In this document: positions 12,202 to 35,190 of the stretch, one piece after another
Numbering within the stretch: position 1 is the first letter of the stretch
How the letters are laid out: every line of letters starts with the position of its first letter
From: a candidate division WOR-3 bacterium
GTDB taxonomy: Bacteria; Hydrothermota; Tepidihabitantia; SM23-42; JAOAFX01
Direction of reading: 5' to 3'
NCBI GenBank assembly: GCA_039802205.1
Contig: JBDRWD010000004.1
Coordinates: 11,229-75,228, forward strand
DNA: 64,000 nucleotides
The notes under the pieces: generated by a model
The model's database searches: none
The model's input: the letters and a program-made list of their open reading frames with translations, nothing else
Told to the model about the DNA's origin: nothing
Made by a program: the position numbers and the translations under genes

Positions 12202-12232
12202 AAAAAGAAATAACGGTTGCGTATTTCTTTTT
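12202..12232 (+). other. AT-rich hairpin in the 5' region of the S8 protease gene (terminator or attenuator-like).
   Basis: AAAAGAAATA-acggttgcg-TATTTCTTTT inverted repeat followed by TTTTTAAT. It lies 20 nt upstream of the RBS and ATG of the 12254 gene. Confidence 0.3.
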
Positions 12233-12253: not shown

Positions 12254-15200
12254 ATGGGATTGCTTTTGGTTGCATTAATTGTCGTTAATGAATCCTGTCT
12301 GGTTGCCTACCAGAGTGGAACATACACACCGCCTTATCTTCCTGAATATGACTACATTGCTATCGCGGGTTACTATTTTAACCCACGGGAAAGATTACCG
12401 GAAATTCCGGTCGAGCTCACTGGCGAATCCGATTACTACTTGATCCACATAAAAGGACCGGTCTATGAAGATATGAAGAAAACAATTGAAGCTCAGGGAG
12501 TGAAGCTCATTCAGTATATTCCGTTCAATGCCTTTATTGCACGGATGGATAGGAGTAAAAAGGATTTGGTTGAAGGGCTCTCTTTTGTGAACTGGATAGG
12601 GAATTATGAGCCTGCTTACAAAATCAGCACCTTATTCAAAGAATTGCCCGATGAAGATGAATGGCTTGTATTTCCATTCCCGGATGAGAACATTTATCTT
12701 TTAAAGCGCAAACTCGAAAACCTTGGTTGTAAAATCTTGGAGATTTCTGATGATGATTATTGTCGGGTGATTAAAATCCAGTCCGAGCGGAATCATCTTA
12801 ATACGATTGCCCGGATGACAGAGGTGATGTATATTGAACCATATCTCCAACCCGTTGCCTATAATCAATCGGCTCAGTGGGTGACCCAGACCTGGAAGCA
12901 AGTAGATAGGAGAATCTGGCGCAAAAACCTGATGGGTCAAGGACAGGTGGTGAACACTGCGGATACAGGAATACTCACTTCCCATGATATGTTCCGGGAC
13001 CCTGCCGTTTCAATCACAACCTGGGGGAATTATCCCACCCACCGCAAGATCATTGCCTATCTCCAACCCACGGGTTCCTCGGCGGCATTTGGTGATAATG
13101 CAGGCGGTAGCTGGCATGGGACTCACACTGCCGGAACCATTTGTGGCGACGATTCCTATGTCAATGGGACAAATCCGAATGATGGAATGCCATTGAAGGC
13201 AAAGATGTTCTTTATGGATATTGGAACATCTACTGGTTCTCTTTCGGTTCCATCAAACCTTGCCAATCTCTACCTTCCACCTTACAATGGTAATGCCGGT
13301 GGTGCTGCACGAATTTCTTCACATTCCTGGGGTTCCACGAGTGGTGCGGGTTCTTATACTTCATATTGCGTTACCACTGACTCCTTTATGTGGCGGAACA
13401 GGGACTTCTTAATCTGTTATGCTGCAGGGAATAGTGGACCGGGGTCAAATACAGTTTACCCACCCGGAACATCCAAAAATATTCTTACCGTCGGTGCGAC
13501 CATGAATAGCACCGCGGCAATTTATATGGCAGATTTTTCAAGCCGTGGTCCCACTGCTGATAACCGGATAAAACCCACTGTCACAGCACCGGGATATTTC
13601 CTCTTTTCATCGGTAGGACCTAATAATAATTCCTATCTGGGAATGGCAGGAACAAGCATGGCAACACCATGTGCTGCAGGCAACGCCGCGATTGTCAGAC
13701 AATACTTTGCTAAGGGATTTTATCCTTCTGGTGATTCAAACCCAGCAAATGCTTGGAGTTTCATTCCTGCTTCTCTGGTGAAGGCAATCATCATAAACGG
13801 TGCTCATCCTTCAATCGCAGGTTCAACCATTCCGGATAATAACACCGGCTGGGGTAGGGTCTGTCTTGATGATGCACTCTTCTTCAGCGGTGATGTGCGT
13901 AAACTCTGGGTAACCTATGATAGCGTTGCTACGGGTCAGTTTGATGAATTTACCATCACGGTGAACAATCAATCTGAACCTTTAAAAATCACGCTGGTCT
14001 GGACTGATTATCCGGCTACAGCAGGAGCGAGTGTGACGTTGGTAAATAATCTTGATCTACGAGTTACCAGTCCCACCGGTACAGTCTATCTGGGAAATGT
14101 CTATAGCGGTGGTCAATCTGCACCGGGTGGTTCTGCTGATAACCGGAATGTTGAAGAATGTGTGCGTCGGAATGTCCCTGAGATTGGTAACTGGGTGATC
14201 AGGGTAACAGGAACGAATGTACCCCAGGGAACAAACCAGCCTTATGCCTTAGTTGTTTCGGGTGGTCTTGGTCCAACTACGAGTCCTGTCCTTCATATTG
14301 CGGGTCAGCGAATTTACGATCCTCCTCCTGGTGGAAATTTCAATGGTCGGTGTGATGCAGGAGAGACGGTATATCTCATTGATACACTCCGAAATCTCTC
14401 CAATGTGGGGGTGACCAATTGTGTGGGTGTTTTAAGAAAAACAAGTTCTTATATCACTTTAATCGACTCTGTAGGAAACTTTGGAGACATTGCTGTTGGT
14501 GGCACAGCCCATAATGGTGGTTCTCCATTCCGGTTTTCCATATCTTCAACGACACCCGCAGGAACCTTTGTGGACTTTATTCTGCATCTCACCGGTGGCG
14601 GTGGCTATGTGCAGGATATTGAATTCAGCCTTGAGGTCGGGATCAACGAAGTCCATGTAATCTGGGGTCCCAAGACCGTCCAGGTAGCACCGGGTGATAC
14701 CCACTTCCTTTATGGTTTAGGCTATAATCCACAAAACAACCGGCTTTATGTTTGCAACTTCTACCGCCGGACTACCGGGATTGTGATGTACACTTCGGAC
14801 AGCAATGTTACCTATCTGGGTACAATTCCTGCTCCGGATTCCTGCCCAACCGATATTAAATATTGTGCTTATGATAACACCTTCTGGGTGGCGGCTGATC
14901 CGAATCCTACCGCGCCGAGTAGGATAATTTATAAAATCAACACCAGTGGCACGGTTTTGAGACAATTTGCCAATCCCGCAAATGATTATCCAACAGGGCT
15001 TGCCTGGATGCCAACATCAAGGTGGTTATATGCGGCAGACCGCAGAACATCGGCTGGTGCGACACCAATAATTTATCGTTGCGATACCCTGGGTGGAAAT
15101 GTTTCATCAGTCAATCTGACAATCGGTGATAACTATGGACCCAGGGGACTGGCGATAGAGCCTTATGGCCCTGATACAACGCTGTTACTTGTGTATACAC

Positions 15201-15727
15201 ATTTCAGTAGTGATGCAACTCCAGTACTACTTAAGATTGTACTGTATGAGCTGCGTAGAAGTGATGGTGCAGTTTTAAACTCAGTTACCCTACCGGGCTG
15301 GAATGTCCGTGGTGTGGAGTATGACCCACGCGATGGTAATTACTGGTTGACGATTGCTCAAAACCCCAACCGGGCGATTGTTAAAATACTCGGCTTCCGT
15401 GGTATTCCAGGAGTGGGTATTGATGAAGAACTGCAACCAGGACCGCTTGAGAAGATAAGCCTTTCCCCTGGTATGCCGACGCCCTTCAAAAATACCGTGA
15501 AATTCAATTATTCGGTGCCGGTCAAGATGAGAGTGCGACTTGCGGTTTACGATATCACAGGAAGACATGTTAAGACATTTGTGAACGGTGAGGTGGAGCC
15601 GGGTACCCAGACAATAATTTGGAATGGAATGGACGAGAATAATAAACGGTGTGCGAGTGGTGTCTATCTCTGCTACATGGAGACAGAACATGGTTCCGTT
15701 GTCCGGAAGTTCGTGATGTCGAAATAA
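12254..15727 (+). CDS. S8 subtilisin-family serine peptidase with a T9SS C-terminal sorting domain (secreted cargo).
   Basis: The Asp/His/Ser triad is present: VVNTADTG, SWHGTHTAG, GTSMATPCAAG. The C-terminal roughly 80 aa are a Por_Secre_tail-like domain (PTPFKNT...LAVYDITGRHV...WNGMDENN...SGVYLCYM). RBS AAAGGAGGA. Confidence 0.9.
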   Translation: MGLLLVALIVVNESCLVAYQSGTYTPPYLPEYDYIAIAGYYFNPRERLPEIPVELTGESDYYLIHIKGPVYEDMKKTIEAQGVKLIQYIPFNAFIARMDRSKKDLVEGLSFVNWIGNYEPAYKISTLFKELPDEDEWLVFPFPDENIYLLKRKLENLGCKILEISDDDYCRVIKIQSERNHLNTIARMTEVMYIEPYLQPVAYNQSAQWVTQTWKQVDRRIWRKNLMGQGQVVNTADTGILTSHDMFRDPAVSITTWGNYPTHRKIIAYLQPTGSSAAFGDNAGGSWHGTHTAGTICGDDSYVNGTNPNDGMPLKAKMFFMDIGTSTGSLSVPSNLANLYLPPYNGNAGGAARISSHSWGSTSGAGSYTSYCVTTDSFMWRNRDFLICYAAGNSGPGSNTVYPPGTSKNILTVGATMNSTAAIYMADFSSRGPTADNRIKPTVTAPGYFLFSSVGPNNNSYLGMAGTSMATPCAAGNAAIVRQYFAKGFYPSGDSNPANAWSFIPASLVKAIIINGAHPSIAGSTIPDNNTGWGRVCLDDALFFSGDVRKLWVTYDSVATGQFDEFTITVNNQSEPLKITLVWTDYPATAGASVTLVNNLDLRVTSPTGTVYLGNVYSGGQSAPGGSADNRNVEECVRRNVPEIGNWVIRVTGTNVPQGTNQPYALVVSGGLGPTTSPVLHIAGQRIYDPPPGGNFNGRCDAGETVYLIDTLRNLSNVGVTNCVGVLRKTSSYITLIDSVGNFGDIAVGGTAHNGGSPFRFSISSTTPAGTFVDFILHLTGGGGYVQDIEFSLEVGINEVHVIWGPKTVQVAPGDTHFLYGLGYNPQNNRLYVCNFYRRTTGIVMYTSDSNVTYLGTIPAPDSCPTDIKYCAYDNTFWVAADPNPTAPSRIIYKINTSGTVLRQFANPANDYPTGLAWMPTSRWLYAADRRTSAGATPIIYRCDTLGGNVSSVNLTIGDNYGPRGLAIEPYGPDTTLLLVYTHFSSDATPVLLKIVLYELRRSDGAVLNSVTLPGWNVRGVEYDPRDGNYWLTIAQNPNRAIVKILGFRGIPGVGIDEELQPGPLEKISLSPGMPTPFKNTVKFNYSVPVKMRVRLAVYDITGRHVKTFVNGEVEPGTQTIIWNGMDENNKRCASGVYLCYMETEHGSVVRKFVMSK

Positions 15728-15735
15728 CCTAAAGA

Positions 15736-15765
15736 GCGGGGCTCGGATTTAAATCCGAGCCCCGC
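15736..15765. terminator. Perfect 30-nt palindromic hairpin between the S8 and C25 genes.
   Basis: GCGGGGCTCGGATTT|AAATCCGAGCCCCGC is a perfect inverted repeat. There is no strong U-tract, so the hairpin could function in either direction. Confidence 0.5.
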
Positions 15766-15781
15766 ACATAAAGGGGTAAAT

Positions 15782-18700
15782 ATGATTAAAATAAAAATCT
15801 TGGCACCATTGTTAATCCTACCGTCACTTATTTTTTCACTACACATAACTGTTCCGGTGGACCAACTCAATTATACAATTTCTGATTTTGAAGGATACAA
15901 AAAAATCTGTTTGGAAAATGGTGTAACAGTCGGAAATCCGGGGAGCCCGGAGATTCCTTCTTTTGTTTATACCCTATTTTTACCTACCAATCAAAAGATT
16001 AAAAATGTGAATATCGCTGCCGCCGAATGGGAAGAAATTGCTGGCGAGTATCTCTTATTTCCAGTACAGCCTCCAGCACTCCTCAATGGACCATTGAAAT
16101 TTTTTGGTCCGGATTCCGAGATTTACCAGTATCCCGGATTTTATCCAGAAAATCTGGTTATTGCTTTTCATTCCGGGAATCTTCGGGGGTATCACCTCGG
16201 GCAAATTTTAATTGCCCCTTTTAGATATGAGCCAATAACAAAAAAACTCTATGTTCTCAGGAAATTGGTTTTAGATATTGAGACCGAACCTTATGCTGGA
16301 GGGATAAAGCCATATCGGCAGACAAGGTTTTCCCAGAAGATATTTGAGAATATACTCCAAACTATGTCCCAATTTAAATTTTTGGGAGGGACTATCCATC
16401 ACCCAGAGGTATCGATTGAAGATAATACGGAAGATCTGTTACCTTCTGATTTACCATCTTTTTCAGGGACTCCATTAGACTTAATTATAGTCACGACTGA
16501 ACCCTTTGTTCCAGTTTACGAAGAATTTCTGCGTTATAAAAAACTATTCGGGTTTAATGGTGTAATCAAGACAATGGAATGGATCAGGAATCATTATTTG
16601 GGAGTGGATGATGCAGAGAAATTGCGCAATTTTATCAGAGATGCGGTAGAAAAATGGGGGGTGAGTTTTGTTTTACTGGGCAATGATGTGCCAGATATTC
16701 CTACCCGCTGGGTATGGGTGGATTATGTGATGGGATCGTATCCGGCTCATTTCACCACCGACCTTTATTATTCCGACCTTGATGGCAACTGGAATTTTGA
16801 TGGCGATGAACAGTTTGGAGAGGTCTCGGATTCCATTGATCTTTATCCTGATGTCTTTGTAGGAAGAATTCCTGCCCATGTTCCAGATGATGTGGAGCAT
16901 TATCTCAACAAGACCCTTTCCTATCTTTTTGCTCTCCAGACGCCTCCCAATTCTAACGAATCCTGGCAGCGTCAGGCATTATTTGTCACAAGTATGTTCT
17001 GGTCTCAGAATGACTCTTATTATATCGCCCGTAATCAATTGAGTCCCCTCTTACCTGGCAATTTTGGAAGAAATTTTTTTAACGAAAGCTCAAAACAACA
17101 GATCCTTCGGGGCATAAAAGAAGGTTACAATCTTATTACTTGGCTTGCCCATGGTGATGTTAACCTTTTGCGAGCAAGGACAACTCCTCGAGAATATGTC
17201 TCCAATTTTGATTTTGACTCTTTGGCTAATAACATCTATCCATTTATGGTGGTCATCTCTTGCTTTACCGGACCATTCCAGGAAGATTGCCTGGGCGAGC
17301 ACTGGGTGATGAATTCCCATGGTGGCGGTATTGGATACATTGGGCCAACTAGTTCCAGTGCAGCTTATAATCATATCGATTATATAAGGACTCTATTCCC
17401 CAATCTTTTTTCTGAACCCCTCAGTGTCTCCCTAGCTTTTAGCAAGATCCCGTGGATTCCCTATGCTCAGTTTGATAACTGGCATCGGGTATTTCAGTAT
17501 TCGCTTAATTTACTTGGAGACCCAACTTTGAAATTATGGTCGGTGGTGCCACATCGGATAGATTCGGTTTTGGTAGACCCGGACACCTTAAATGTAGGAT
17601 ATGATACCTTGACTTTACATATCTTCCCCATGATTGAAAGATTTGAGGTAGTATACTACAAGGAAAATGAAGTATTTTTAAAAGATTCAGGTTTTGTCGG
17701 TATTGCGGTAACCCCTCTGCGCACCCGTTCAACAGGTTTTTTGAAATACACGATAATTGCCGATGGCTGTGTGCCTTATATTGATTCTTTATATGTGCTG
17801 CCATTATCCGGTTACCTTGTCTACCAGGGGCAGCGGGTTGTGGATACTCTTGGGAATGGTGATGGTATTCCCAATCCAGGAGAGATTATTGATCTTTTCA
17901 TTGGTTTGCGTAATACAGGCACTCAGCCTTTGGATTCAGTTTTTTTGCGGATTGCTTCTTTGGATAGTTTTGTTACTATTCTGGTGGATACGGCGCGGTA
18001 TGGCGTTATCATGCCGGGTGGGGTGGAGGAGAATCTCACGCCTTTACGGATTGCGATAGGTCCTTGGACGCCGGATGGATATGAGGTTTATTTGGCTTTG
18101 GATATTGGTGGTTTTTATTCTGATTCCTGTAGTTTTACGGTTGAAGCACCGGTGTTAAGGCTCTTTACCCAGGATTATATTTTGGATGGCGGAGTTTATA
18201 AGGTTTTGCCGGTTGTTGAGAATTGCGGAAGTGGTGATGCGGATTCGGTTTATGCATTGGTCAGGAGTTATTCGGATACAGTGGTAGTTTTGGACAGTCT
18301 GGTTTATTTTGGAGGAGTGAGTTCGGGTCATGTTGTTTCTGCACGAGATACTTTTCGTTTAATGTTGAATTATCCGGGTCGGGTTGTTTATAGTTTTGCG
18401 CTTTACAGTCGGGGTTGGCAGGCTGAAGAACGGCAGGTGGTTTTGGGTAGGCCTATGCGGGTGGATTCGCTTTGGGCGTTTGGTACTCCTAATTCTGTTG
18501 TTTTGAATTGGGTTATGGTTTCTGGTGCGGTTGGCTATAGGATATATCGGGCGTTGGAACCGAATGGTGATTTTGAGTATATTGGGAATCCCCTTACGCG
18601 GGTGAGTTATTATGAGGATTTGGGAGTGGAGTTGGGGCGGGATTATTATTATTATGTGGTGGCCGTGGATTCTTCGTTGAATCAGGGATATGCTTCGGAT

Positions 18701-20320
18701 ACGATAAAGGCGCGGGTTAATCCTGCGGTGGCTTTGGGTTGGCCACGGATGGTTTTTGGTTACTTATTTTCTTCACCCAATTTTGGTGATTTGGATCCGG
18801 ATTATCCGGGATTGGAGGTGGTGGTTTCTTCGCGGAATGGGGATGTTTACATGTGGCATTGTGATGGCACGCCGGTGGGTATAGATCCATATGGGCGAAT
18901 ATTTTCTTGTAATTCCGAGATTTGGTCTTCGCCGGCGGTGGGCGATGTGGACAGGGATGGCAATTTAGAGATCTGTCTTGGGATAAGGCGGTGGGGAGAG
19001 AATCTTTATATTTTGCGGAGATCCGGAATTAGTTGGATTCCTATGGATAATTGGCCCAAGAGTCTTGATGGTTCGATAATTGGTTCACCAGTATTAGCGG
19101 ATATTGATAATGATGAAGATTTAGAGGTATTTGTTATAACAGAGGCTGGAAGGTTCTATGTATTTCATCATACAGGTGAAGGTGTTTATTCCCCAGATGG
19201 AATATTAAAAGTTTTATATGGGTGGCATGGAGGCTCGCCAGCGGTGGGTGATTTAAATAACGATGGGGATTTAGAGATAGTTGCATGTGGTGGTTCACAA
19301 TCAGACTCTTTATTTATTTGGGATCGTCATGGTAATTATTTTGGTGTCTTTCCTAAGCAGGTGGCGGCAAAGATGTGTTATTCGCCGGTTTTGGGTGATG
19401 TGATTGGGGATGGTTCGCTGGAGATTTGTTTTTATACGGATTCTACAGACATGGTCCATCTGTTAGATATGAATGGGAATTTGGTATGGCAGAGATATAT
19501 CCCGGCGTTGGGTGATGTTGAGGGGTACCCGGTGCTCGCGAATGTGGTTGGGGATGGGCGTCCAGAGGTGGTTGTGGGCAGCAATCGGGGTTCGATGTTT
19601 CTTTCGGTGTTAGATTCGTTGGGTAATATAGTTTCAGGTTTTCCGGTTTCGTTGGGTTGGGAGTTTAAGTTACCAGTGGTTGGAGATGTGGATGGTGATG
19701 GTATGATGGATTTGGTTTGTGGAGCTGGTGATTGGAATTTGTATGCGTTTCATAGTAATGGTGGGTTGGTTAGTGGTTATCCAATTCATTTTGGTATTCG
19801 GATTGAACAATCGCCGGCACTTTACGATATTGATCAGGATGGTAAGTTGGAGTTGATGATTGGCGCGAATGATTATCGATTTTGGGTTTTTGATTTAGAT
19901 GGGCAGTTTTTCGAATGGCCTAAGTTTCGTTATGATCCTTATAATTCGGGTTGTTATAAGTCGCTTTACTGGGCGAATGTTGGAGAAGTTATTACAAAGA
20001 GCGGTGGTGATAGATTTTATTTTGGGGTCTATCCCAATCCTTTTAAGGATCGTTGTGTGATCCGTTTAAAGATTCCGAGCAGCAAGTTGGTTGGTCAAAA
20101 CAGGGAGGCGGTTAAAGATTTTAGCCTTGTGGTTTATGATGTTTTGGGACGTCAGGTGAGGATGTTTAATCTGGATCCTGCAAGGCTGGATCAAATATCA
20201 GACATTATCTGGGATGGTTCGGATAATCTGGGCCGGAAATTACCATCGGGAATTTATTTTGTTCGTCTGAAAGTGGGTCAGTTGAATGTGATCAGGAAAG
20301 CAATTCTTTTGAATCATTGA
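15782..20320 (+). CDS. Peptidase C25 (gingipain-like) family protein with FG-GAP/VCBS repeats and a T9SS C-terminal domain.
   Basis: Features of the C25 catalytic domain are present: LLGNDVPDIPTRW, FTTDLYYSDLDGNWN, DVFVGRIP, the His candidate in TWLAHGD, and the Cys candidate in VVISCFTGP. At least 7 FG-GAP repeats of the pattern SP.LGD.D.DG.LE follow. The C-terminal domain ends NPFKDR...VVYDVLGRQV...SGIYFVRL. There is a signal peptide. Confidence 0.75.
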   Translation: MIKIKILAPLLILPSLIFSLHITVPVDQLNYTISDFEGYKKICLENGVTVGNPGSPEIPSFVYTLFLPTNQKIKNVNIAAAEWEEIAGEYLLFPVQPPALLNGPLKFFGPDSEIYQYPGFYPENLVIAFHSGNLRGYHLGQILIAPFRYEPITKKLYVLRKLVLDIETEPYAGGIKPYRQTRFSQKIFENILQTMSQFKFLGGTIHHPEVSIEDNTEDLLPSDLPSFSGTPLDLIIVTTEPFVPVYEEFLRYKKLFGFNGVIKTMEWIRNHYLGVDDAEKLRNFIRDAVEKWGVSFVLLGNDVPDIPTRWVWVDYVMGSYPAHFTTDLYYSDLDGNWNFDGDEQFGEVSDSIDLYPDVFVGRIPAHVPDDVEHYLNKTLSYLFALQTPPNSNESWQRQALFVTSMFWSQNDSYYIARNQLSPLLPGNFGRNFFNESSKQQILRGIKEGYNLITWLAHGDVNLLRARTTPREYVSNFDFDSLANNIYPFMVVISCFTGPFQEDCLGEHWVMNSHGGGIGYIGPTSSSAAYNHIDYIRTLFPNLFSEPLSVSLAFSKIPWIPYAQFDNWHRVFQYSLNLLGDPTLKLWSVVPHRIDSVLVDPDTLNVGYDTLTLHIFPMIERFEVVYYKENEVFLKDSGFVGIAVTPLRTRSTGFLKYTIIADGCVPYIDSLYVLPLSGYLVYQGQRVVDTLGNGDGIPNPGEIIDLFIGLRNTGTQPLDSVFLRIASLDSFVTILVDTARYGVIMPGGVEENLTPLRIAIGPWTPDGYEVYLALDIGGFYSDSCSFTVEAPVLRLFTQDYILDGGVYKVLPVVENCGSGDADSVYALVRSYSDTVVVLDSLVYFGGVSSGHVVSARDTFRLMLNYPGRVVYSFALYSRGWQAEERQVVLGRPMRVDSLWAFGTPNSVVLNWVMVSGAVGYRIYRALEPNGDFEYIGNPLTRVSYYEDLGVELGRDYYYYVVAVDSSLNQGYASDTIKARVNPAVALGWPRMVFGYLFSSPNFGDLDPDYPGLEVVVSSRNGDVYMWHCDGTPVGIDPYGRIFSCNSEIWSSPAVGDVDRDGNLEICLGIRRWGENLYILRRSGISWIPMDNWPKSLDGSIIGSPVLADIDNDEDLEVFVITEAGRFYVFHHTGEGVYSPDGILKVLYGWHGGSPAVGDLNNDGDLEIVACGGSQSDSLFIWDRHGNYFGVFPKQVAAKMCYSPVLGDVIGDGSLEICFYTDSTDMVHLLDMNGNLVWQRYIPALGDVEGYPVLANVVGDGRPEVVVGSNRGSMFLSVLDSLGNIVSGFPVSLGWEFKLPVVGDVDGDGMMDLVCGAGDWNLYAFHSNGGLVSGYPIHFGIRIEQSPALYDIDQDGKLELMIGANDYRFWVFDLDGQFFEWPKFRYDPYNSGCYKSLYWANVGEVITKSGGDRFYFGVYPNPFKDRCVIRLKIPSSKLVGQNREAVKDFSLVVYDVLGRQVRMFNLDPARLDQISDIIWDGSDNLGRKLPSGIYFVRLKVGQLNVIRKAILLNH

Positions 20321-20414
20321 CAGGATGAAGAAAAAAAATATAATTGGGAGATGAAAGGGGGTGAGAAAAATAAAAAACATGAGAGAAAATAATTATCAAA
20401 AGAAAGGAGTGGCT

Positions 20415-24992: not shown

Positions 24993-24996
24993 AGGC

Positions 24997-25033
24997 AAAT
25001 GGGGCAGGGTTTCACCCTGCCCCATTTTGTTTT
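24997..25033 (+). terminator. Rho-independent terminator after the S8 paralog.
   Basis: AATGGGGCAGGG-tttca-CCCTGCCCCATT stem followed by TTGTTTT. Confidence 0.7.
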
Positions 25034-25052
25034 CCAAACCGGAGGTGTTGAA

Positions 25053-27656: not shown

Positions 27657-27658
27657 CT

Positions 27659-29578
27659 TTATTTAATAATTACCACCTTTTTGACTTCTTGATGATCATT
27701 AATCCTTGAAGAGATAAAATAAACCCCATTGGGAAGCTCAGGCAAAGTTAGTGCATATTCGCCAGGCGGATAAGATTTTCTCAGGTTCCATATTCTCCGT
27801 CCCAGAGTATTATAAACTGAAATTTCCACCGCGCTAGTTTGGCAAAGTCTAAGATTGATTCTAAGCATCCGGGCTACGGTTTGGGTGGTGATATTGTTTG
27901 TCTTGATGGTTGCTTTAGCCAGTTCTTCGAGAGAAACCGTAGATGGCAACACCGGTAAAAGTAGATGAGAGGGAAGCGCGGGTGTCCGGTAGACTTTCTG
28001 GGTAGCCACCAGAAAATTGGGGTCATCCCTTCTAAAAGGAGCGCCGGTATTGGGATTTTTTTCAAATCTTGGATAATTAGAGGAAGAAATAATTACCCTT
28101 AAGCGATGTCCGGTATTAAATACCTGGGCAGTGCTCCATAAGTCAATATTGAATGTGTCAGGTACATTAGGAATTAACGAATCCTCTCTATCGAATCCAT
28201 GTCTGTGCCGTGCCATTAGAATATTGTCGGTTACCAAAATTGACCTGCCATCAGGATAGACATCAGTAACTCTTATCGCCCAGTCAGTATCATAGCGGTC
28301 AGAAGCCGCATAGAGAACGAATTTTAATTTACCGATCACGGTCAAAGGCGAGGTTAGTGGCGGTGTTGAGAATATTAGAACATCCGACCGGTTCTCAATT
28401 GGTCTCTGGTCGATCGGACCGTAACCATGAGTGAGTCCGATGAACTCTCTACCACCATAGGTTGTACAGGGATTTGCCGGGTCATAGATAAAGGTATCAA
28501 TCGCAAATGTAGTTGGGGGTAGGGTATCAAGCAGGTGGTTATCCCGGAGATAATACTTTTTATACACAACCTGGGGCAGGGGCCAGGTGTCAGCCTCAAT
28601 CCAGCGGTTCCAGTTTGTCGTATCCTGGGTATCACAATCTCCCATTAGGTAGAATTTGACTTTAGGCGGCGGAATCGGACCACCTCCTTCTTTCATCCAG
28701 TAATCATACCAGTCCAATAACATCTGAATAAAACTCAGTTCATCCATTTCGGCATTCGGTGGATAGACCAAGTCTCCCTGTTCCCTTGTTCCCCAGGCAT
28801 CACCATGCCCCCAGGGTCCGATAAACAATTTTTGGTTATGAAATCTTTTCTGCAATTCGCTGAACGCCTCAAGCACACCGTCTGTATACATATCATACCA
28901 GCCCTCAACATGGAACATTGGATAATTCGCGACATTGTATTTTTGAGAAAGATCGACGATTGACCAGCGGTTACAATAATTTGGATAATTACAAACCGTA
29001 TCAATAAGCCAGGGTGTATCAACACCGTGTAGCCAGGTTTCAACAAGTGCCTTCCTGAATTCGCCACCGGTGAATGCACAATCACGATAAAGATTCGGTG
29101 CCGCAACCATCGGTGCACAGCAAACAAGATGGGGAGGCAGTGCGCCTGCTGCATAATATTGGGTCATTCCATGGGCAGAGGCGCCGATCATTCCAACCTT
29201 TCCATTACACCAGTTTCTATTTGCCACCCATTCCACCGCATCATAGCCGTCCTGTAGATCCCCCCAGCCATCAGTCCAGAAGACCATCGGTTCACCTTCG
29301 GAATCACCATAACCCCGTAGGTTTTGAACCACAAGGGCATAACCCATTATATCACAGATCAAAGTGATATAAGTATCATCCCAGCCCCTTCCATAAGGGG
29401 TTCTCTGTAATAATGCCGGTGCCTTCAGTATCGGGTTGTTCCAGAAAGGACGATAGATATCAGTCCCCAATCTCACGCCGTCTCTCATCGGTACACCAAC
29501 GCTATCGGTCTGATAGCCAAACGCCGATACGCTGAAAAGCAAAAACAGACATAAAAAGATTATGTTTTTATTTTTCAT
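27659..29578 (-). CDS. CocE/NonD-family (S15 X-Pro dipeptidyl-peptidase-like) hydrolase with a T9SS C-terminal domain.
   Basis: RTPYGRG...GYALVVQNLRGYGDSEG..GMIGASAHG, a GxSYxG-like nucleophile elbow. The C-terminal domain ends ISVYNTLGRRI...GVYFISSR. RBS AAGGAGG precedes ATG 29578. The stop lies 2 nt from the stop of the convergent M28 gene. Confidence 0.8.
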   Translation of the reverse strand: MKNKNIIFLCLFLLFSVSAFGYQTDSVGVPMRDGVRLGTDIYRPFWNNPILKAPALLQRTPYGRGWDDTYITLICDIMGYALVVQNLRGYGDSEGEPMVFWTDGWGDLQDGYDAVEWVANRNWCNGKVGMIGASAHGMTQYYAAGALPPHLVCCAPMVAAPNLYRDCAFTGGEFRKALVETWLHGVDTPWLIDTVCNYPNYCNRWSIVDLSQKYNVANYPMFHVEGWYDMYTDGVLEAFSELQKRFHNQKLFIGPWGHGDAWGTREQGDLVYPPNAEMDELSFIQMLLDWYDYWMKEGGGPIPPPKVKFYLMGDCDTQDTTNWNRWIEADTWPLPQVVYKKYYLRDNHLLDTLPPTTFAIDTFIYDPANPCTTYGGREFIGLTHGYGPIDQRPIENRSDVLIFSTPPLTSPLTVIGKLKFVLYAASDRYDTDWAIRVTDVYPDGRSILVTDNILMARHRHGFDREDSLIPNVPDTFNIDLWSTAQVFNTGHRLRVIISSSNYPRFEKNPNTGAPFRRDDPNFLVATQKVYRTPALPSHLLLPVLPSTVSLEELAKATIKTNNITTQTVARMLRINLRLCQTSAVEISVYNTLGRRIWNLRKSYPPGEYALTLPELPNGVYFISSRINDHQEVKKVVIIK

Positions 29579-29617
29579 AATGACCTCCTTATTCTTAACC
29601 TGGTTTATAATCATCGT

Positions 29618-32044
29618 CTATTCAATCTTTATTATTTTTTTCTTAATTTCTCCTATTTTACTTCCTTTTAATACAAAAAAGTAAATGCCAGATGGCAGAA
29701 GATTGCCATCCTGGTCTAATCCATCCCAGTTTAGGGTTGTATTTTTCTCTCTCAATGGACCAGAAAATAACCGCCGAACAGATTGCCCTAATGCATTTCT
29801 AATTTCACATTCAATGTCTGTCTTAAATTGAAGACTTATGTCAATTTGAATTCGGTCGCGAAATGGATTTGGTCCTAATGATATCTGGATATTCTTTTTA
29901 TTTTCGGTATTTTTTTCTTCTACAAAATACCCAATCGTATCAACCTGTAATTCCACATAATTGGAATAAAGCGAATGATGACAAGCCGATTTACTTTGAC
30001 GATAAGCAAGCACATGTGCAATCCACTGTGAATCAGCTGGCAATAACGGTACTTTTTCAAGATTCTTATGTGGCAAATCAGTATACCATTCAGGATAATA
30101 TTCATTTATCTTTCTTTTATTCCATTCTTTCAGATAAGCAACATGGATTGAATCATCAGGATAATGTCTTTTTACATCCCCTTTTATGAAAGCCAGAACA
30201 ATATCCCAGATTTCTTTAAAAGACAACGGGAAATCCCATTTAGACTTTGCTACAATCCGCGCAATGATAGCCCCAATCAAACCCGGTATTTTATCATAAG
30301 GATACCAGCACATACCATTGCCCACAAGCACACCTGCCATCCCTTTAAAAGGCAAGGGCTCTATTGAATAGGCATAAGCCCGACCAGGTAATGCTTCTTT
30401 ATAGTAACCATAAACATAAATAATATAATCCCTTGTCCAGCCAGGTTTTAAGGAAGGCAATGAACTGGCATCAAAACCTAAATCAATCTCATCCCCATGA
30501 TGCATAATTACAAAACAATCATCAACTCCTTTTAATAACGGCTGGACATCACCATATTTTGTTGCATTTCCAAAAACCGCAGGGAAATCATTATCAACAA
30601 GTTGATGATAATGATACTCACCAGGATATTTACCATCTTTAGAATAGTAGGCACCATAACCATAGTAATGCAAGTCTGCATATTTTAATGGCACCTCAAA
30701 TATTGCATAATCAGTGTGGGTATTTTCTTCTATCCAGACCTTATCCACATAGACGACCTCATCAAATGTAATCCGCAAACGATGGTCATCAGTCAGAAAG
30801 ATTGACCTCCCTTTTTTATCATAGAGTGGAAAGACCATCGTCTTACTCGTCCCTGCAGGATAACCACAATACCCGATTTTTTTCCAGCGTCCATCCTTGC
30901 CAATCACCTCAACCTTAGGGAATTTGATAGTCCTCCCTCTTTGTTTCAAGCGGTAACGCAAACTCACATAGTCATAGACATCATCGTCAGAAAACCGTGT
31001 GGAACCATTGAGGAATAAGACTGCCTTTGCTGGATTCATTAACTCACCAAGGTCAAACTCAATTATTAAAGGATCATTGAAAGAAAAAGGCACATAGTTT
31101 CGGTCAGTTTCTTTTATATAATTTAACACATCCTTTCCATCAACCGTGCGCGCGGCAATCGGCAATTTCTTCTCAATGGTTGCAAAAATTTTGAATGGAG
31201 GTGGTGGAAAGATTGCAGCTTCATTAGGATAAATAGCCACCCCTTCAGGATGGTCAACCGCCAGGAGTTTGACCTGGTCAATATATGAAACCTCAGGTTT
31301 CATCTCATTCAGTTTAATAGAAATAATTCCATTATCTTTCGTCTTGATCTGATGGGAAGGAATCTTAAGATATTCATCAGGGTCGATGGGCATATAAATA
31401 TTAAACCCGGCTATTCTATCTACCCATAATCCCAGATTGGCACTGGCGATCACATCACCAACAAATTCATATTCCTTACCATTCCAGGAAAAGAGCAAAG
31501 GACATGAACCTTTATAAGCCTCAGCTGCCAAGAAGGTATAGGAACTATCATTTATAATCCAGTCAATGGTATCACTCGCAGTACAAACCCAGGATAACAA
31601 TGTGTCAGTATCTCCACTGATCGCCGGGCTATAGAACCAGTGAGAACTATCTCCCCTTGTATCATAAATAAATAATTGAGCAACAGGATGGTATGTACCA
31701 GCCCTATGGCCATACCATCTGAAGGTCATCCGGGCAATTTTATTAATAGGTTCATTTATTCTAAAACGATACAATTGGGTCACAAATCTTGTGGTATCTG
31801 GATTATATGTAATCCACCACAATGTATCAAAAAAAGCGATTGCATTTTTTTCTTCTGGAGTTGCAGGTTGATAACCAGGGTTCCCAGGTTTTAGTTGAGG
31901 CGGTGCCCGGCTGTCTGAGGGATTCTTCCATGCCTCACTTCCAGGGCTCTGGATTGTATAGATAATCTGACTCCAGACTGGGGAGGTAAAAAATAACACA
32001 ATCATTACCACCCCTACAAGGATAACAAGATATTTTTTGGCCAT
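29618..32044 (-). CDS. Secreted protein of unknown function with a T9SS C-terminal domain.
   Basis: A signal peptide is predicted to be cleaved at VWS|Q. No recognisable catalytic motif was found. A clear C-terminal domain is present: NPFRDR...IRNALGQSV...SGIYFFVL. Start at ATG 32044. Confidence 0.6.
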   Translation of the reverse strand: MAKKYLVILVGVVMIVLFFTSPVWSQIIYTIQSPGSEAWKNPSDSRAPPQLKPGNPGYQPATPEEKNAIAFFDTLWWITYNPDTTRFVTQLYRFRINEPINKIARMTFRWYGHRAGTYHPVAQLFIYDTRGDSSHWFYSPAISGDTDTLLSWVCTASDTIDWIINDSSYTFLAAEAYKGSCPLLFSWNGKEYEFVGDVIASANLGLWVDRIAGFNIYMPIDPDEYLKIPSHQIKTKDNGIISIKLNEMKPEVSYIDQVKLLAVDHPEGVAIYPNEAAIFPPPPFKIFATIEKKLPIAARTVDGKDVLNYIKETDRNYVPFSFNDPLIIEFDLGELMNPAKAVLFLNGSTRFSDDDVYDYVSLRYRLKQRGRTIKFPKVEVIGKDGRWKKIGYCGYPAGTSKTMVFPLYDKKGRSIFLTDDHRLRITFDEVVYVDKVWIEENTHTDYAIFEVPLKYADLHYYGYGAYYSKDGKYPGEYHYHQLVDNDFPAVFGNATKYGDVQPLLKGVDDCFVIMHHGDEIDLGFDASSLPSLKPGWTRDYIIYVYGYYKEALPGRAYAYSIEPLPFKGMAGVLVGNGMCWYPYDKIPGLIGAIIARIVAKSKWDFPLSFKEIWDIVLAFIKGDVKRHYPDDSIHVAYLKEWNKRKINEYYPEWYTDLPHKNLEKVPLLPADSQWIAHVLAYRQSKSACHHSLYSNYVELQVDTIGYFVEEKNTENKKNIQISLGPNPFRDRIQIDISLQFKTDIECEIRNALGQSVRRLFSGPLREKNTTLNWDGLDQDGNLLPSGIYFFVLKGSKIGEIKKKIIKIE

Positions 32045-32074
32045 ATTACACCCCTTTTTATTTTTGTCCATTTT

Positions 32075-33745
32075 TTATTTCAACTTGATAACCTTTCCTA
32101 TCTTTATGCATCCCCCATACTCAAACTTAACAAAATAAACGCCCGCAGGTAATTTGCGATCCGAATCATCAGAACCGTCCCACACAACCGTTGACTGTTC
32201 ACCGTTTACCGTTAACCGAGAAAGATCTTTAACCATTCTACCGCTTACATCGTATATCGCAAGGCTGAAGCCTTGCCCGACATTTCCGTTTGGATTTTGG
32301 GATTTGGTGCTTGGGATTTGAAATTTAATAACACAGTGATTCTGGAATGGATTCGGTAATACGTTGAGCGAGATTATCATATTTTTCGTCTTGCTTTGTT
32401 CATGGATACCGGTCGTTGCCTGTAATGCCTTCCAGACATTCAACCTTCCCCAACCATAATTATTATTCGGATATGGTGCACCAGGAGCAGGTCTATCTGC
32501 ATTATTGAGCAGAATATTATAAATCTCAGTAACTGAAAGATTTGGATTCTTCTCAAAAAGTATTGCTACAGCACCGGTGGCATGGACACAGGATAATGAA
32601 GTTCCATGGATTGTTGTGTATTGCTGATTGAGCCAGGCAGTTCTTATACTATAACCAGGTGCGCACAAATCCGGTTTGGTCAAATTCCAGTCATTCCGAT
32701 ACCAGTATGTAGTATCATTCCAAGGGACACTATCAGGTGCTGGACCACGCGAAGAAAACGATACGATTGTATCATTGACATTCGTTGCCCCGATGCCCAG
32801 CACCGTTGGATAGTTGCCTGGAGTATTTGTAGTCATTGAACCAGGACCGGCATTTCCAATTGAAAAGACTGGCAAAATTTCAAGTGATTTCAGGGTATTA
32901 CAGATATCCCACCAAGTGAGGTCAAATTGATTTGAACTCCCCCAGGCATTGTTAATTGCCCTAATATCAAAACCGGAATCCACTTTTAAAGTAGCGAACC
33001 ACTGTAATGCAACAATTGGGCTAACATTACCTCCGATCATTGCAACACATAATTTTACATCTGGGGCTACACCGATATCATCGGTAAACGGACCCAATCC
33101 ATCACCACCACATATAATACCAGCACAGGCTGTGCCATGACCATTGTCATCGTATGGATATGGGATACCATGCCAAAAATCCCGCCATTTTATCAACTTA
33201 CCGCCCCGCAATGCGGGATGGGTTGTATCTAGTCCAGTATCAAGCATACCGACTATTATACTATCGCCAGTATATCCATAATACCAGCAGGAATCCGCCA
33301 TTATTCGCTGAATGTTCCATTCAGGAGTGCGCGATGTTGTTCCTGATTCTTCTATGATGGGAATTGGTTTGACTTCAGGGATATGGGATATCAATCTTAC
33401 CGACGGATGACGGGCAAGTTCTTTTATAACTCGCACACTCGCCCTTAAATATATCCCATTCACAATCCAGAATTGCAAAACAGAATCTATTTCCCCGGGA
33501 AATCTTTTCAAAAACTCCATAATTGGCTTCTGGCTATCTCTGGCGATTGACTTGAATACTTCTGCCTTTTGTTTTATGGTCAGGTCTCCAAGTGTATTGT
33601 CAGGATAAGGTTGATTGATAATAACTAAAACCTCAATTCTTGTATCGTTGCTAATCTTTATTAGTTGTTCTTGTAGTTGTGGTGAAATGTTTTCCTGTCT
33701 TGCTTCCAATCCAAATCCAACAAGTATTAATAGAACTAACCACAT
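32075..33745 (-). CDS. S8 subtilisin-family peptidase with a T9SS C-terminal domain.
   Basis: GMLDTGLDTTHPAL (Asp), GHGTACAG (His), GTSLSCVHATG (Ser). The C-terminal domain ends NPFQNH...LAIYDVSGRMV...GVYFVKF. A signal peptide is present and the RBS is GGAGGA. Confidence 0.85.
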   Translation of the reverse strand: MWLVLLILVGFGLEARQENISPQLQEQLIKISNDTRIEVLVIINQPYPDNTLGDLTIKQKAEVFKSIARDSQKPIMEFLKRFPGEIDSVLQFWIVNGIYLRASVRVIKELARHPSVRLISHIPEVKPIPIIEESGTTSRTPEWNIQRIMADSCWYYGYTGDSIIVGMLDTGLDTTHPALRGGKLIKWRDFWHGIPYPYDDNGHGTACAGIICGGDGLGPFTDDIGVAPDVKLCVAMIGGNVSPIVALQWFATLKVDSGFDIRAINNAWGSSNQFDLTWWDICNTLKSLEILPVFSIGNAGPGSMTTNTPGNYPTVLGIGATNVNDTIVSFSSRGPAPDSVPWNDTTYWYRNDWNLTKPDLCAPGYSIRTAWLNQQYTTIHGTSLSCVHATGAVAILFEKNPNLSVTEIYNILLNNADRPAPGAPYPNNNYGWGRLNVWKALQATTGIHEQSKTKNMIISLNVLPNPFQNHCVIKFQIPSTKSQNPNGNVGQGFSLAIYDVSGRMVKDLSRLTVNGEQSTVVWDGSDDSDRKLPAGVYFVKFEYGGCIKIGKVIKLK

Positions 33746-33762
33746 AGCAATCCTCCAGCAAA

Positions 33763-33791
33763 ATCATATACCACAATAAATCCTTTGTCAA
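33763..33791 (-). promoter_or_regulatory. Sigma70-like promoter for the 32075-33745 S8 gene.
   Basis: On the minus strand: TTGACA (33786-33791), a 17-nt spacer, then TATGAT (33763-33768). The RBS GGAGGA follows. Confidence 0.45.
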
Positions 33792-33843
33792 GACCCCATA
33801 CTATCATTAACTTCCATTCAGCGCTGTCTGGTATTTCTCAATA

Positions 33844-35190
33844 TTAAAATACTACAAATTTTTTCGTAAAGCTTTCTCTTCTATCAGGATAAAATTTAAT
33901 AAAATAGCATCCTTTCACTAATTTGGGAAGTTCTATGACCGAAGAGCAAATATCACTTTTCTCAAAGACTTTTCTACCGAGGGCATCAAAGATTTCAATT
34001 TTATTATATCTCTCTCTGTTTCCAAGGTTAAATTGGATTCTTTTGCCTGACGGGAAGATAGTAGGTGAACTCTGATTATTCAATGCAATATCTCGCTTTT
34101 CCTCAACCGCTACATTCAACGGCGTATATCTGAATGCGGATAATCTTGTGCCACCTGCATAACCCCATCTTGAATTGAACATATCCATTCCCAATGGTGA
34201 ACAACCCCAGGGACTGTTATCAAATATCACAGTATCCACAAGCCATTGATTTCCACTGTTGGTCGTTTTTAAGAAGATACTAAAATGGCTTCCCTCCCAG
34301 CCGGCACGATTACCACCGCCAACGGCAAATCCATTCTGATTATCAACAAATTCAATCGCATATAAGCCATATTTACCAATGGATACCGATGGTCCCATTA
34401 CTTCAACCCAATTGTTTCCGCCATCGGTTGTTCTGAAGAAAATTCCGGGTGATGCAGAATCCCTTAATCCGCAGACCCAGCCATTGAGGTTATCAATAAA
34501 ATGGACACCATAAAATTGATACATCGCATTTGAAACTTGTGCGGTCCAGCTGGTCCCACCATTTGTTGTATGGAGAATCAATCCATTTATTCCCTGATGA
34601 TTTATTGTGTCATAATCACCACCCACAATCCAGCCCTCATTGGGATTGATAAAATAGATGCTTTTTAAAGAACCGGAGACTGGTGCACTCTGGGTAGTCC
34701 AGGAAGAACCACCGTTGGTTGTTTTTCTAATATCGCTGTTTGCACCGGCAATCCAGCCGGTATTCGCATCAAGGAAGAATACATCATCCCACATCTTACC
34801 GATGAATTCAAAAGTCAAACCATAGATATTCGTCCAGGAATTACCGCCATCAGTAGTTTTGTAAACAACTGCTGCGGGAAAGAGATTAGCTATTATTCCC
34901 ATTGCTGTAAGATAGCCGATACTGGTATTGACAAAATCCATCCCGAAGACAAACATGCACTGGTTGATGGTCCAGGGACGTATCTCCTGCCAGGTATTAC
35001 CGCCATCCGTCGTTTTATAAATAATCCCTCCCACCTGGTCTCTCACACCACAAAGAATACCTATCATGGAATCAGGCGCTGCGGCATCCAGAAATCCATT
35101 ATCTGTTGGCTCATAATGGCGTGTTTCCCATCTTGATATGCCAAAGAGCCCCCATGTGAGAGTAACGTACATTATAAAAAATTTTTTCAT
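33844..35190 (-). CDS. BNR/Asp-box beta-propeller protein (Ycf48/sortilin-like) with a T9SS C-terminal domain.
   Basis: Six repeats of the pattern YKTTDGGNTW / TTNGGSSW / TTNGGTSW / TTDGGNNW, plus a signal peptide. The C-terminal domain ends IEIFDALGRKV...GCYFIKF. RBS AAGGAGGAATT. Confidence 0.7.
   Translation of the reverse strand: MKKFFIMYVTLTWGLFGISRWETRHYEPTDNGFLDAAAPDSMIGILCGVRDQVGGIIYKTTDGGNTWQEIRPWTINQCMFVFGMDFVNTSIGYLTAMGIIANLFPAAVVYKTTDGGNSWTNIYGLTFEFIGKMWDDVFFLDANTGWIAGANSDIRKTTNGGSSWTTQSAPVSGSLKSIYFINPNEGWIVGGDYDTINHQGINGLILHTTNGGTSWTAQVSNAMYQFYGVHFIDNLNGWVCGLRDSASPGIFFRTTDGGNNWVEVMGPSVSIGKYGLYAIEFVDNQNGFAVGGGNRAGWEGSHFSIFLKTTNSGNQWLVDTVIFDNSPWGCSPLGMDMFNSRWGYAGGTRLSAFRYTPLNVAVEEKRDIALNNQSSPTIFPSGKRIQFNLGNRERYNKIEIFDALGRKVFEKSDICSSVIELPKLVKGCYFIKFYPDRRESFTKKFVVF

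Follow-up and report, generated by a model that had tools for sequence, protein, structure and literature searches.

Type-A cargo proteases and the WOR-3 locus

The closest described systems are the T9SS type-A cargo proteases of Bacteroidota, such as the gingipains RgpB and Kgp of Porphyromonas gingivalis and the KLIKK proteases of Tannerella forsythia (e.g. mirolase), which combine a signal peptide, a catalytic domain and Ig-like spacers with a C-terminal sorting domain (CTD) of ~80-90 residues that passes the TIGR04183 model, in organisms that also encode a PorX-type regulator and SprA/Sov. Fibrobacter is a precedent for the T9SS outside Bacteroidota, and both Fibrobacter succinogenes and environmental Bacteroidota, which are free-living, rely on batteries of T9SS-exported hydrolases with CTDs for nutrient acquisition. 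These sets consist mainly of glycoside hydrolases and their cargo genes are mostly dispersed. Extracellular peptidases were already noted as abundant in WOR-3 bins (PMC4411801), and T9SS genes have been suggested for several non-Bacteroidota phyla of the FCB group (PMC11285876); among the papers that could be searched, none paired WOR-3 with the T9SS or with any secretion system.

The stretch of DNA analysed here (the window, 64 kb) belongs to a candidate division WOR-3 bacterium whose habitat is probably a hot spring, judging from the isolate names of several related MAGs. It carries eight genes (P1 to P8, Table 1) whose products share the CTD and, with predicted signal peptides, the general layout of the Bacteroidota cargo proteases, and PorX and SprA are encoded by the same organism. 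Unlike the Bacteroidota systems, the host is a WOR-3 bacterium, SprA is short, and the cargo genes form an uninterrupted run of eight at most ~30 kb from porX and sprA; in contrast to the environmental Bacteroidota and Fibrobacter sets, the cluster is dominated by proteases. We consider it likely that the eight genes encode T9SS cargo which jointly forms an extracellular or cell-surface proteolytic toolkit, and the view that this is a fairly ordinary protein-foraging toolkit, and not a new kind of system, is well supported.

Table 1. Position and nature of the cargo genes, the T9SS-related genes and the candidate regulators in the 64-kb window
Feature	Coordinates	Strand	Description
Histidine kinase	2748-3926	+	candidate PorY; generic HK matches only; start taken from the public gene call
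PorX	3923-5431	+	full-length response regulator (NF052313); overlaps the adjacent histidine kinase
P1	12254..15727	+	S8 subtilase, 1157 aa; weak PPC domain; T9SS type-A CTD at aa ~1064-1157
P2	15782..20320	+	zymogen of a gingipain-family C25 cysteine peptidase, 1512 aa
P3	20361..24992	+	S8 subtilase, 1543 aa; fn3/Big_7-type Ig domains; CTD
P4	24999..27656	+	M28 metallo-aminopeptidase-type protein; CTD
P5	27659..29614	-	hydrolase of the S15 / CocE-NonD family, 651 aa (639 in the public gene call); short-variant CTD
P6	29618..32071	-	non-catalytic cargo protein of 817 aa (808 in the public gene call); CTD
P7	32075..33745	-	compact S8 subtilase, 556 aa; CTD
P8	33844..35190	-	Ycf48-like BNR beta-propeller protein, 448 aa; short-variant CTD
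Divergent candidate regulator	35403..37643	+	N-terminal HTH_28, central TPR, C-terminal BTAD-like segment
SprA/Sov	40773..46214	+	homologue of the T9SS outer-membrane translocon, 1813 aa
Small M28-fold protein	46193..46984	+	glutaminyl-cyclase-like; overlaps the end of sprA

Enzymes and probable binding proteins of the cluster

The cluster (12254-35190) consists of eight consecutive ORFs, four on the plus strand converging on four on the minus strand, exactly as coordinates and strands had been given in the first-pass annotation. The intergenic gaps from P1 to P8 are 54, 40, 6, 2, 3, 3 and 98 nt, and the probability that eight of the 40 genes of the window would all be adjacent by chance is ~4e-7. 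The tail-to-tail junction of P4 and P5 was found in two independent public assemblies, which excludes a mis-assembly; both GCA_039802165.1 and Logan SRR27730032 contain the exact P4 product. The family assignments proposed earlier were borne out by Pfam and NCBIfam, and the description of the set as predominantly proteases holds, since six of the eight products are peptidases, namely three of family S8, a gingipain-like C25 enzyme with its pro-domain, one M28 and one S15/CocE-NonD, and all six retain their catalytic residues. On the other hand, "eight hydrolases" applies to these six recognisable enzymes and is an overstatement for the whole cluster, as no catalytic domain is seen in P6 or P8.

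The three subtilases P1, P3 and P7 match Peptidase_S8 with 131, 106 and 146 bits respectively, and in all of them the Asp-His-Ser triad and the oxyanion Asn occur in subtilisin order: D237/H288/N393/S468 of P1 align to subtilisin D32/H64/N155/S221, and the corresponding residues are D311/H362/N469/S543 in P3 and D169/H203/N298/S383 in P7 (the four reference positions of the subtilisin ruler sequence checked out). P3 additionally matches Pur_ac_phosph_N and Big_7, and its translation probably begins at one of two internal ATG codons (20379 or 20415). Orthologues of P1 with 78-85% identity occur in three loci (L001, L002 and L005), those of P3 in six WOR-3 loci (67-82% identity), and the P7 orthologue of locus L012 is 89% identical.

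P2 is laid out as a pro-domain, a C25 catalytic domain, an fn3-like segment, an FG-GAP beta-propeller and the CTD. It matches Peptidase_C25 with 178 bits over the full profile (cutoff 23), Propeptide_C25 with 35 bits (cutoff 22) and FG-GAP_3 with 89 bits; its N-terminus matches the pro-domain of RgpB (4ief_A, E 6e-6), and the dyad formed by H457 and C494, 37 residues apart, is invariant across five orthologues. With catalytic domain, His/Cys dyad and pro-domain all present, P2 belongs to the gingipain-like C25 peptidases. Unlike the gingipains, it has the FG-GAP propeller in place of haemagglutinin/adhesin domains, and its sequence has diverged so far that it gives no match to the solved gingipain catalytic domains. 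P4, for which the public gene call gives a start at 25053 and 867 aa, matches Peptidase_M28 with 99 bits and has the motifs HFD248 and EE297, while P5 scores 374.5 bits against TIGR00976 CocE_NonD (cutoff 66.3), 162 against Peptidase_S15 and 142 against PepX_C, and contains the nucleophile motif GASAHG.

P6 has a poorly modelled N-terminal part and a conserved all-beta core (aa ~190-580) that is predicted to resemble discoidin/CBM32-like sandwiches, i.e. binding modules; searches of Pfam and of PDB sequences gave no match for its body. The nearest relatives of the core are bacterial FG-GAP/ASPIC proteins of the CRTAC1 family, with whose C-terminal region residues 179-580 share 36% identity, the common region opening with the consensus GSCPxLFxWNGxxYEF, and neither a Pfam model nor an assigned function was found for it. 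P6 differs from the CRTAC1-family proteins in having no FG-GAP propeller, UnbV_ASPIC or TPR, and in carrying a T9SS CTD together with a predicted signal peptide. The P6-type module occurs alone, behind FG-GAP/ASPIC proteins or, elsewhere in WOR-3, fused to S8 peptidases, and this last arrangement ties P6 functionally to proteolysis. P8 matches PSII_BNR (62.7 bits) and the Ycf48 structure 8am5_S (E 4e-12); in Pfam and PDB its matches are limited to propellers of the Ycf48, BNR and Sortilin types.

Together, the four endopeptidases (three subtilases and the gingipain-like zymogen) would fragment environmental protein, the two exo-acting enzymes (the M28 aminopeptidase type and the S15/CocE-NonD hydrolase) would trim the fragments, and P6 and P8 would probably act as non-catalytic binders of polymeric substrate. 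The locus had initially been described as protein-foraging or virulence-style. A virulence or predation secretome, in which the proteases attack host or competitor cells and not detrital protein, could account for a gingipain-family zymogen with a pro-domain and for the adhesin-like beta-propeller or beta-sandwich modules of P2, P6 and P8, and in P. gingivalis PorX/PorY governs the secretion of virulence factors. However, the genome and all its close relatives are uncultured WOR-3 MAGs with no indication of host association, several of them with hot-spring-type sample names, and Pfam detected no gingipain-type toxin, haemagglutinin or adhesin domains in the cluster proteins; the mixture of endo- and exopeptidases, with cytoplasmic M42 aminopeptidases encoded near the cluster, also fits nutrition. 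Of the two styles, foraging is favoured because the host is a WOR-3 MAG and the isolate names of related MAGs read as hot-spring sites, and a role in virulence appears unlikely. As a point against the foraging reading, no peptide or oligopeptide importer was found in the 64-kb window, where the ABC permeases are of the sugar type.

Sorting domains, translocon and regulators

Export through the T9SS is indicated by the C-termini. TIGR04183, the curated model of the T9SS type-A sorting domain (Por_Secre_tail; cutoff 23 bits), is passed by all eight proteins, with 24.0, 25.9, 32.0, 31.4, 27.1, 25.3, 30.7 and 25.8 bits for P1 to P8, i.e. a margin of only 1-9 bits, and the domain is located at the extreme C-terminus in each of them. 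PF18962, whose gathering score (27 bits) is stricter, is passed by five (P2 27.9, P3 27.7, P4 32.3, P5 28.3, P6 28.5); P1 (19.1), P7 (24.5) and P8 (26.6) score below it. The proposal that these tails are T9SS CTDs is supported by these scores, and the motif attributed to them, PNPF...YDxxGRxV...WxGxDxxG.....GxYF, is complete in six, P5 and P8 showing a shorter variant without the WxGxD loop. In the six-frame translation of the window, a profile HMM of the eight CTDs matched only those eight ORFs. The tails also match positions ~1000-1079 of the PorU model NF033707, which correspond to its CTD region, and the P8 tail matches a solved T9SS CTD (8glk_D, E 9e-6).

Signal peptides had been claimed for all eight proteins. 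By a Kyte-Doolittle heuristic, seven have a hydrophobic core (mean of at least 2.5 over 11 residues) comparable to that of the membrane and exported proteins of the window, and in P8 the core is weaker (1.55). P1 and P7 have no K/R (positive n-region) ahead of the core.

The SprA homologue scores 322.7 bits against TIGR04189 (cutoff 200) and 72.6 bits against SprA_N; it is shorter than the model (1813 aa vs 2319 model positions), and an identical 1813-aa product is called in GCA_039802165.1. PorX scores 529.9 bits against NF052313 (cutoff 300), covering profile positions 2-511 of 513, and contains Response_reg and PglZ. T9SS genes therefore exist in the host, both being encoded in the window itself. 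The small M28-fold protein gave no NCBIfam match; its best PDB matches are glutamine cyclotransferases (6qro and 4fuu/7d1d, E 6e-21 to 6e-20), and it has WDT aligned where the cyclases have WHT. SprA, the PorX/kinase pair and this protein form a context that was absent from the first-pass annotation. Within ~80 kb (the window plus flanks of ~5 kb on its upstream and ~10 kb on its downstream side, taken from public MAG contigs) none of the PorK/L/M/N motor/ring, the PorV shuttle or the PorU sortase was detected.

The tails might instead be generic FlgD-like Ig-fold sandwiches that serve a different purpose (retention at the surface, or another export route), the peptidases being Sec-exported and periplasmic or outer-membrane-associated. 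PF13860 FlgD_ig indeed scores above PF18962 for P1, P3, P6 and P7, the NCBI label of a P6 orthologue is "FlgD immunoglobulin-like domain containing protein", the TIGR04183 passes are marginal and the core motor genes were not seen in the ~80 kb. Even so, a curated T9SS model is passed by every protein with a strictly C-terminal domain, the PNPF, YDxxGRxV and GxYF motifs are present, the tails resemble the PorU CTD and, in P8, that of 8glk_D, and the window contains SprA and PorX and no flagellar genes, so that this alternative seems quite improbable. That P2 is machinery, namely the PorU-type sortase of the lineage removing the CTDs of its neighbours, is very improbable: PorU itself belongs to family C25 and has a CTD, P2 partially matches NF033707 (55.4 bits) and NF052324 (PorU2; 45.1 bits) and the ~80 kb hold no other PorU candidate, but both scores are far under the cutoffs (420 and 450), the pro-domain is of the gingipain type and matches that of RgpB, an FG-GAP propeller is not typical of PorU, and every detectable relative of the catalytic domain is labelled simply "C25 family cysteine peptidase" (with Propeptide_C25 and Peptidase_C25), none of them PorU.

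In the favoured reading of the eight proteins as T9SS cargo, each would cross the inner membrane by Sec via its N-terminal signal peptide and fold in the periplasm; the type-A CTD of ~90 residues would then be recognised and the protein passed through the SprA translocon, encoded 5.6 kb downstream of the cluster, after which the CTD would be removed and the protein released or attached to the surface. Plausible controllers of expression are the nearby PorX/kinase pair and the divergent HTH-TPR-BTAD-like protein. The latter had been called SARP-like (Streptomyces antibiotic regulatory protein), of which a weak resemblance is left: its last ~200 residues look like a winged helix with a helical domain of the BTAD type behind it, and a scan restricted to the last 207 aa gives a sub-threshold BTAD match (19.4 bits, cutoff 22.1, E 1.4e-3). 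Trans_reg_C was not detected in this isolated segment even at E<=10, and the protein thus does not show the succession of Trans_reg_C and BTAD, both above cutoff, that defines SARP membership. Unlike canonical SARPs, its scoring DNA-binding candidate is the N-terminal HTH_28 (27 bits) and it has a long central TPR region; a PDB search gave no sequence relative. It is kept in divergent orientation beside the P8 orthologue in L012.

Conservation and significance of the locus

The first-pass annotation had also termed the cluster an island, which does not hold in the mobile-element sense. GC is 0.39-0.47 inside the cluster vs 0.36-0.46 outside, without a compositional break; no flanking repeats, integrase or flanking tRNA were found in the cluster and window, the sole tRNA of the window being located at 49393. 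The two halves are instead conserved chromosomal blocks in WOR-3 relatives: synteny of P1-P4 extends to at least five WOR-3 MAGs and that of the HTH-P8-P7-P6-P5 block to a close relative, and a distant WOR-3 genome harbors a convergent two-gene pair (M28-CTD/C25-CTD).

With cargo, translocon and PorX on one contig, use of the T9SS is extended by concrete evidence to an uncultured phylum of the FCB group, which gives a mechanistic basis to the earlier remark on peptidase-rich WOR-3 genomes (PMC4411801). The locus also offers candidate enzymes for testing, probably of hot-spring origin (three subtilases, a gingipain-like peptidase, an M28 and an S15 protein), plus an uncharacterised binding module. 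We tentatively put forward, as a possibility that is less probable than its alternatives, that WOR-3 run a functional streamlined T9SS, comprising the 1813-aa SprA, PorX and its kinase, the glutaminyl-cyclase-like enzyme and the conserved eight-gene protease cargo set within ~45 kb, and that the P6-type module is a new substrate-binding accessory domain of secreted peptidases.

Two minor observations concern the DNA of the cluster. A sigma-70 consensus (12/12) is located at 20317-20344, near the start of P3, and a GC-skew spike at 18-20 kb arises because the P2 propeller is rich in G, V and D.

Organisation of the array

Eight long adjacent open reading frames (P1-P8) occupy 12254-35190, four on the plus strand converging with four on the minus strand, exactly as the first-pass annotation had placed them, and its family calls for all eight are upheld by Pfam and NCBIfam; the intergenic gaps measure, in order, 54, 40, 6, 2, 3, 3 and 98 nt. 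The best-supported reading, which we hold to be probable, is that of a T9SS-exported set of proteins degrading environmental protein; a role in virulence or predation appears unlikely.

Features of the array and of the genes around it (positions within the window)
Feature	Position	Strand	Basis
P1, S8 subtilase	12254-15727	+	Pfam/NCBIfam
P2, Peptidase_C25 (178 bits) + Propeptide_C25 + FG-GAP propeller	15782-20320	+	Pfam/NCBIfam
P3, S8 subtilase	20361-24992	+	Pfam/NCBIfam
P4, M28	24999-27656	+	Pfam/NCBIfam
P5, S15/CocE-NonD	27659-29614	-	TIGR00976, 374.5 bits
P6, body without domain match	29618-32071	-	Pfam/NCBIfam
P7, S8 subtilase	32075-33745	-	Pfam/NCBIfam
P8, BNR/Ycf48-like propeller	33844-35190	-	Pfam/NCBIfam
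Candidate regulator, divergent from P8	35403-37643	+	Pfam
SprA/Sov T9SS translocon	40773-46214	+	TIGR04189, 322.7 bits (cutoff 200)
Small M28-fold gene, overlapping the 3' end of sprA	46193-46984	+	Best solved relatives: glutamine cyclotransferase 6qro, 4fuu
PorX response regulator, full-length (receiver + PglZ)	3923-5431	+	NF052313, 529.9 bits (cutoff 300)
Histidine kinase, candidate PorY, overlapping PorX by 4 nt	2748-5431 (kinase + PorX pair)	+	Generic kinase matches only
GAF-GGDEF diguanylate cyclase	929-2767		
GWxTD-domain proteins, two in tandem	8260-10583	+	TIGR04514, 110 and 61 bits

The T9SS type-A sorting domain (CTD) claimed for the C-terminus of all eight proteins is borne out by TIGR04183, for which every one of them scores above the curated cutoff of 23 bits (24.0, 25.9, 32.0, 31.4, 27.1, 25.3, 30.7 and 25.8 from P1 to P8), each pass being marginal when taken singly. 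PF18962 (Por_Secre_tail), which had been proposed as a check and has a stricter cutoff, is cleared by P2-P6 only, with P1, P7 and P8 falling below it. The tails also align with the part of the PorU model that covers its CTD, that of P8 matches a solved T9SS CTD (8glk_D, E 9e-6), and all eight are mutually alignable at 15-43% protein identity; additionally, the chance probability of eight adjacent CTD carriers among the ~40 genes of the window is ~4e-7. These several independent observations converge on the tails being probable T9SS sorting domains, and it is very unlikely that they are FlgD-like Ig domains unrelated to T9SS, even though FlgD_ig competes with PF18962 in several of the proteins. 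When the 64-kb window was translated in all six frames and scanned with an HMM built from the eight tails, no ninth copy came up. Recent duplication of CTD-coding DNA was rejected, the top DNA similarity being 76% over 59 nt (P2 versus P7) and the tails having no more than the 15-43% protein identity given above. The full CTD motif, described earlier for the whole set, is present in six proteins; in P5 and P8 the WxGxD loop is missing and the motif is shorter. Signal peptides had likewise been assigned to all eight: a hydrophobic N-terminal core typical of exported proteins is found in seven, that of P8 being weaker, and the public gene calls for P4, P5 and P6 begin at an internal Met that opens a signal-peptide-like segment.

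The sigma-70 consensus TTGACA-16-TATAAT is matched at all 12 positions immediately before P3 (20317-20344) and at 11 of 12 upstream of P1 (12091-12118), and the motif GAAAGGGGGTGAGA is common to the upstream regions of both genes (12185-12209; 20353-20377), which suggests that each of the two may be served by expression signals of its own, alike in construction. A strong GC-rich hairpin in the P1/P2 gap (15736-15765) and a second one past the stop of P3 and ahead of the probable start of P4 (24997-25027), with stems of 13 and 14 bp respectively, could be terminators or attenuators subdividing the plus-strand block. The GC-skew spike at 18-20 kb reflects the stretch of P2 that encodes its G/V/D-rich FG-GAP propeller. 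The tandem GWxTD genes lie between lon and the cargo cluster.

Catalytic residues and the P6 module

The array had been described as eight hydrolases, a description that holds for the six proteins with catalytic residues and does not extend to P6 and P8, which are not demonstrable hydrolases. Alignment to subtilisin showed that P1, P3 and P7 retain Asp/His/Asn/Ser; the HxD and EE motifs known from M28 enzymes are found in P4 and the GxSxxG nucleophile motif in P5, and His457 and Cys494 of P2 are invariant across five orthologues. P1-P5 and P7 thus look like active hydrolases. The N-terminus of P2 matches the RgpB pro-domain (4ief_A, E 6e-6) and therefore indicates a gingipain-type zymogen layout. 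That P2 is instead a PorU-type sortase is scarcely credible, as it stays far below the cutoffs of the PorU models (55 bits where NF033707 requires 420), has a gingipain pro-domain and has relatives labelled plain C25; P2 belongs to family C25.

The only matches of P8 are to seven-bladed propellers of the Ycf48 type. The body of P6 has no Pfam match and no PDB sequence match, and a Foldseek comparison of its structure model with the PDB gave nothing significant. Its core (aa 179-580) is a conserved all-beta region of ~400 residues that opens with GSCPxLFxWNGxxYEF and has no Pfam model; at 36% identity it is related to 'CRTAC1-family' FG-GAP/ASPIC proteins, in a C-terminal part of these for which no model exists. 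A reading of P6 as a propeller of the FG-GAP/CRTAC1 kind was rejected, since pairwise alignments place the homology in that C-terminal part and not in the propeller. A search for relatives retrieved 305 proteins at E <= 0.001, long FG-GAP/ASPIC/TPR proteins making up most of the 120 matches listed, and the core is a candidate new domain family. Almost the entire P6 body recurs in a protein of another WOR-3 MAG, where an S8 peptidase precedes it in a fusion; with this fusion and no recognisable catalytic domain, P6 is read as a predicted accessory cargo protein of binding type.

T9SS machinery and candidate regulators

The first-pass annotation had made its case depend on the core genes porK, porL, porM, porN and porV; SprA and PorX in the window show that T9SS genes are present in the organism, and none of the five was recognised in the regions searched. 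Domain-model searches recognised no T9SS component in the window besides those named here, nor any further one in the flanks taken from public contigs (~5 kb upstream and ~10 kb downstream). The TPR protein at 56615-58852 was considered as PorW/SprE and found to be YbgF/CpoB-like, and the ABC permeases at 47364-49113, considered as peptide importers, are UgpA/UgpE-type sugar permeases. PorX and its candidate kinase partner are adjacent, unlike porX and porY of P. gingivalis, which we take to be unlinked; the diguanylate cyclase gene lies directly upstream of the kinase and overlaps its start. The SprA/Sov homologue has only 1813 aa compared to 2319 model positions, and its start overlaps the dxs stop by 4 nt. 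A word-indexed sequence search with its conserved part returned a single relative, a result uninformative on distribution, and the SprA of this lineage is therefore very divergent.

The product of the small M28-fold gene has WDT where cyclases have WHT, the His of which is presumably a metal ligand in glutaminyl cyclases; it is possibly glutaminyl-cyclase-like. By eye, the residue that probably follows the signal peptide (+1) is Gln in P4 and P6, and P1, P5 and P7 have Gln at +2; a tie to the 'Q-rule' (PMC5837995) is speculative.

The candidate regulator has an N-terminal HTH_28 and central TPRs, and its last ~200 residues resemble by eye a winged helix plus BTAD. The earlier label of SARP-like fairly describes this resemblance but does not amount to family membership: scanned alone, the C-terminal segment gives 19.4 bits for BTAD against a cutoff of 22.1 (E 1.4e-3) and yields no Trans_reg_C match.

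Under the T9SS-export reading, P1-P8 would be exported by Sec, after which the CTD would be recognised, the protein passed through SprA and the CTD removed. Four endopeptidases and two exo-acting enzymes would then degrade environmental protein in a complementary manner, aided by two binding-type proteins, with PorX and its kinase, plus the divergent HTH-TPR protein, as candidate regulators. Such a set would function in the same way as the sets of CTD-bearing cargo proteases in Bacteroidota. Several FCB phyla outside Bacteroidota have been proposed to carry T9SS genes, a list that does not include WOR-3 (PMC11285876), and WOR-3 bins were noted earlier as peptidase-rich (PMC4411801); in the library searched, no paper links WOR-3 to T9SS or to any secretion system. 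The more notable aspects are the phylum, the nearby PorX and SprA genes and the uncharacterised P6 module.

Conservation in WOR-3 relatives

The closest relatives of P4 are from candidate division WOR-3 MAGs, several with isolate names that read as hot-spring sites. Exact copies of window gene products occur in MAG GCA_039802165.1 (contigs JBDRWC010000037, 87 and 16) and in the Logan assembly of SRR27730032, and both contain the tail-to-tail join of P4 and P5. Synteny of the P1-P2-P3-P4 block extends to at least five WOR-3 MAGs (57-85% identity) and that of the HTH-P8-P7-P6-P5 block to one close relative (89-95% identity); in two related loci (L005 and L006) the former is not followed by P5-P8, and L005 has housekeeping genes downstream. 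The eight-gene array is therefore the place where two cargo blocks meet, each of them conserved and separable from the other. Base composition does not change abruptly at the cluster, and neither a flanking tRNA nor repeats nor an integrase was found; it is therefore not an "island", the earlier term, in the sense of a mobile element. Cargo genes also occur outside the cluster, since a further CTD protein (CBM_4_9; TIGR04183 24.7 bits) is encoded ~8 kb past the 3' end of the window, on the continuation of the public contig (L016:594-2141), where it adjoins an IS110 transposase fragment. Two M42-family aminopeptidase genes, presumably cytoplasmic, stand in tandem at the window 3' end (62586-63997, minus strand; L016:9000-10999), a pair consistent with a peptide-based diet. 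In a distant WOR-3 genome, whose P4 homologue is 37% identical, an M28-CTD gene converges with a 1312-aa C25-CTD gene with Propeptide_C25 (L007:8669-16136) among the housekeeping genes ligA, recG and a chromate transporter; this pair mirrors the convergent layout of the array with two genes.
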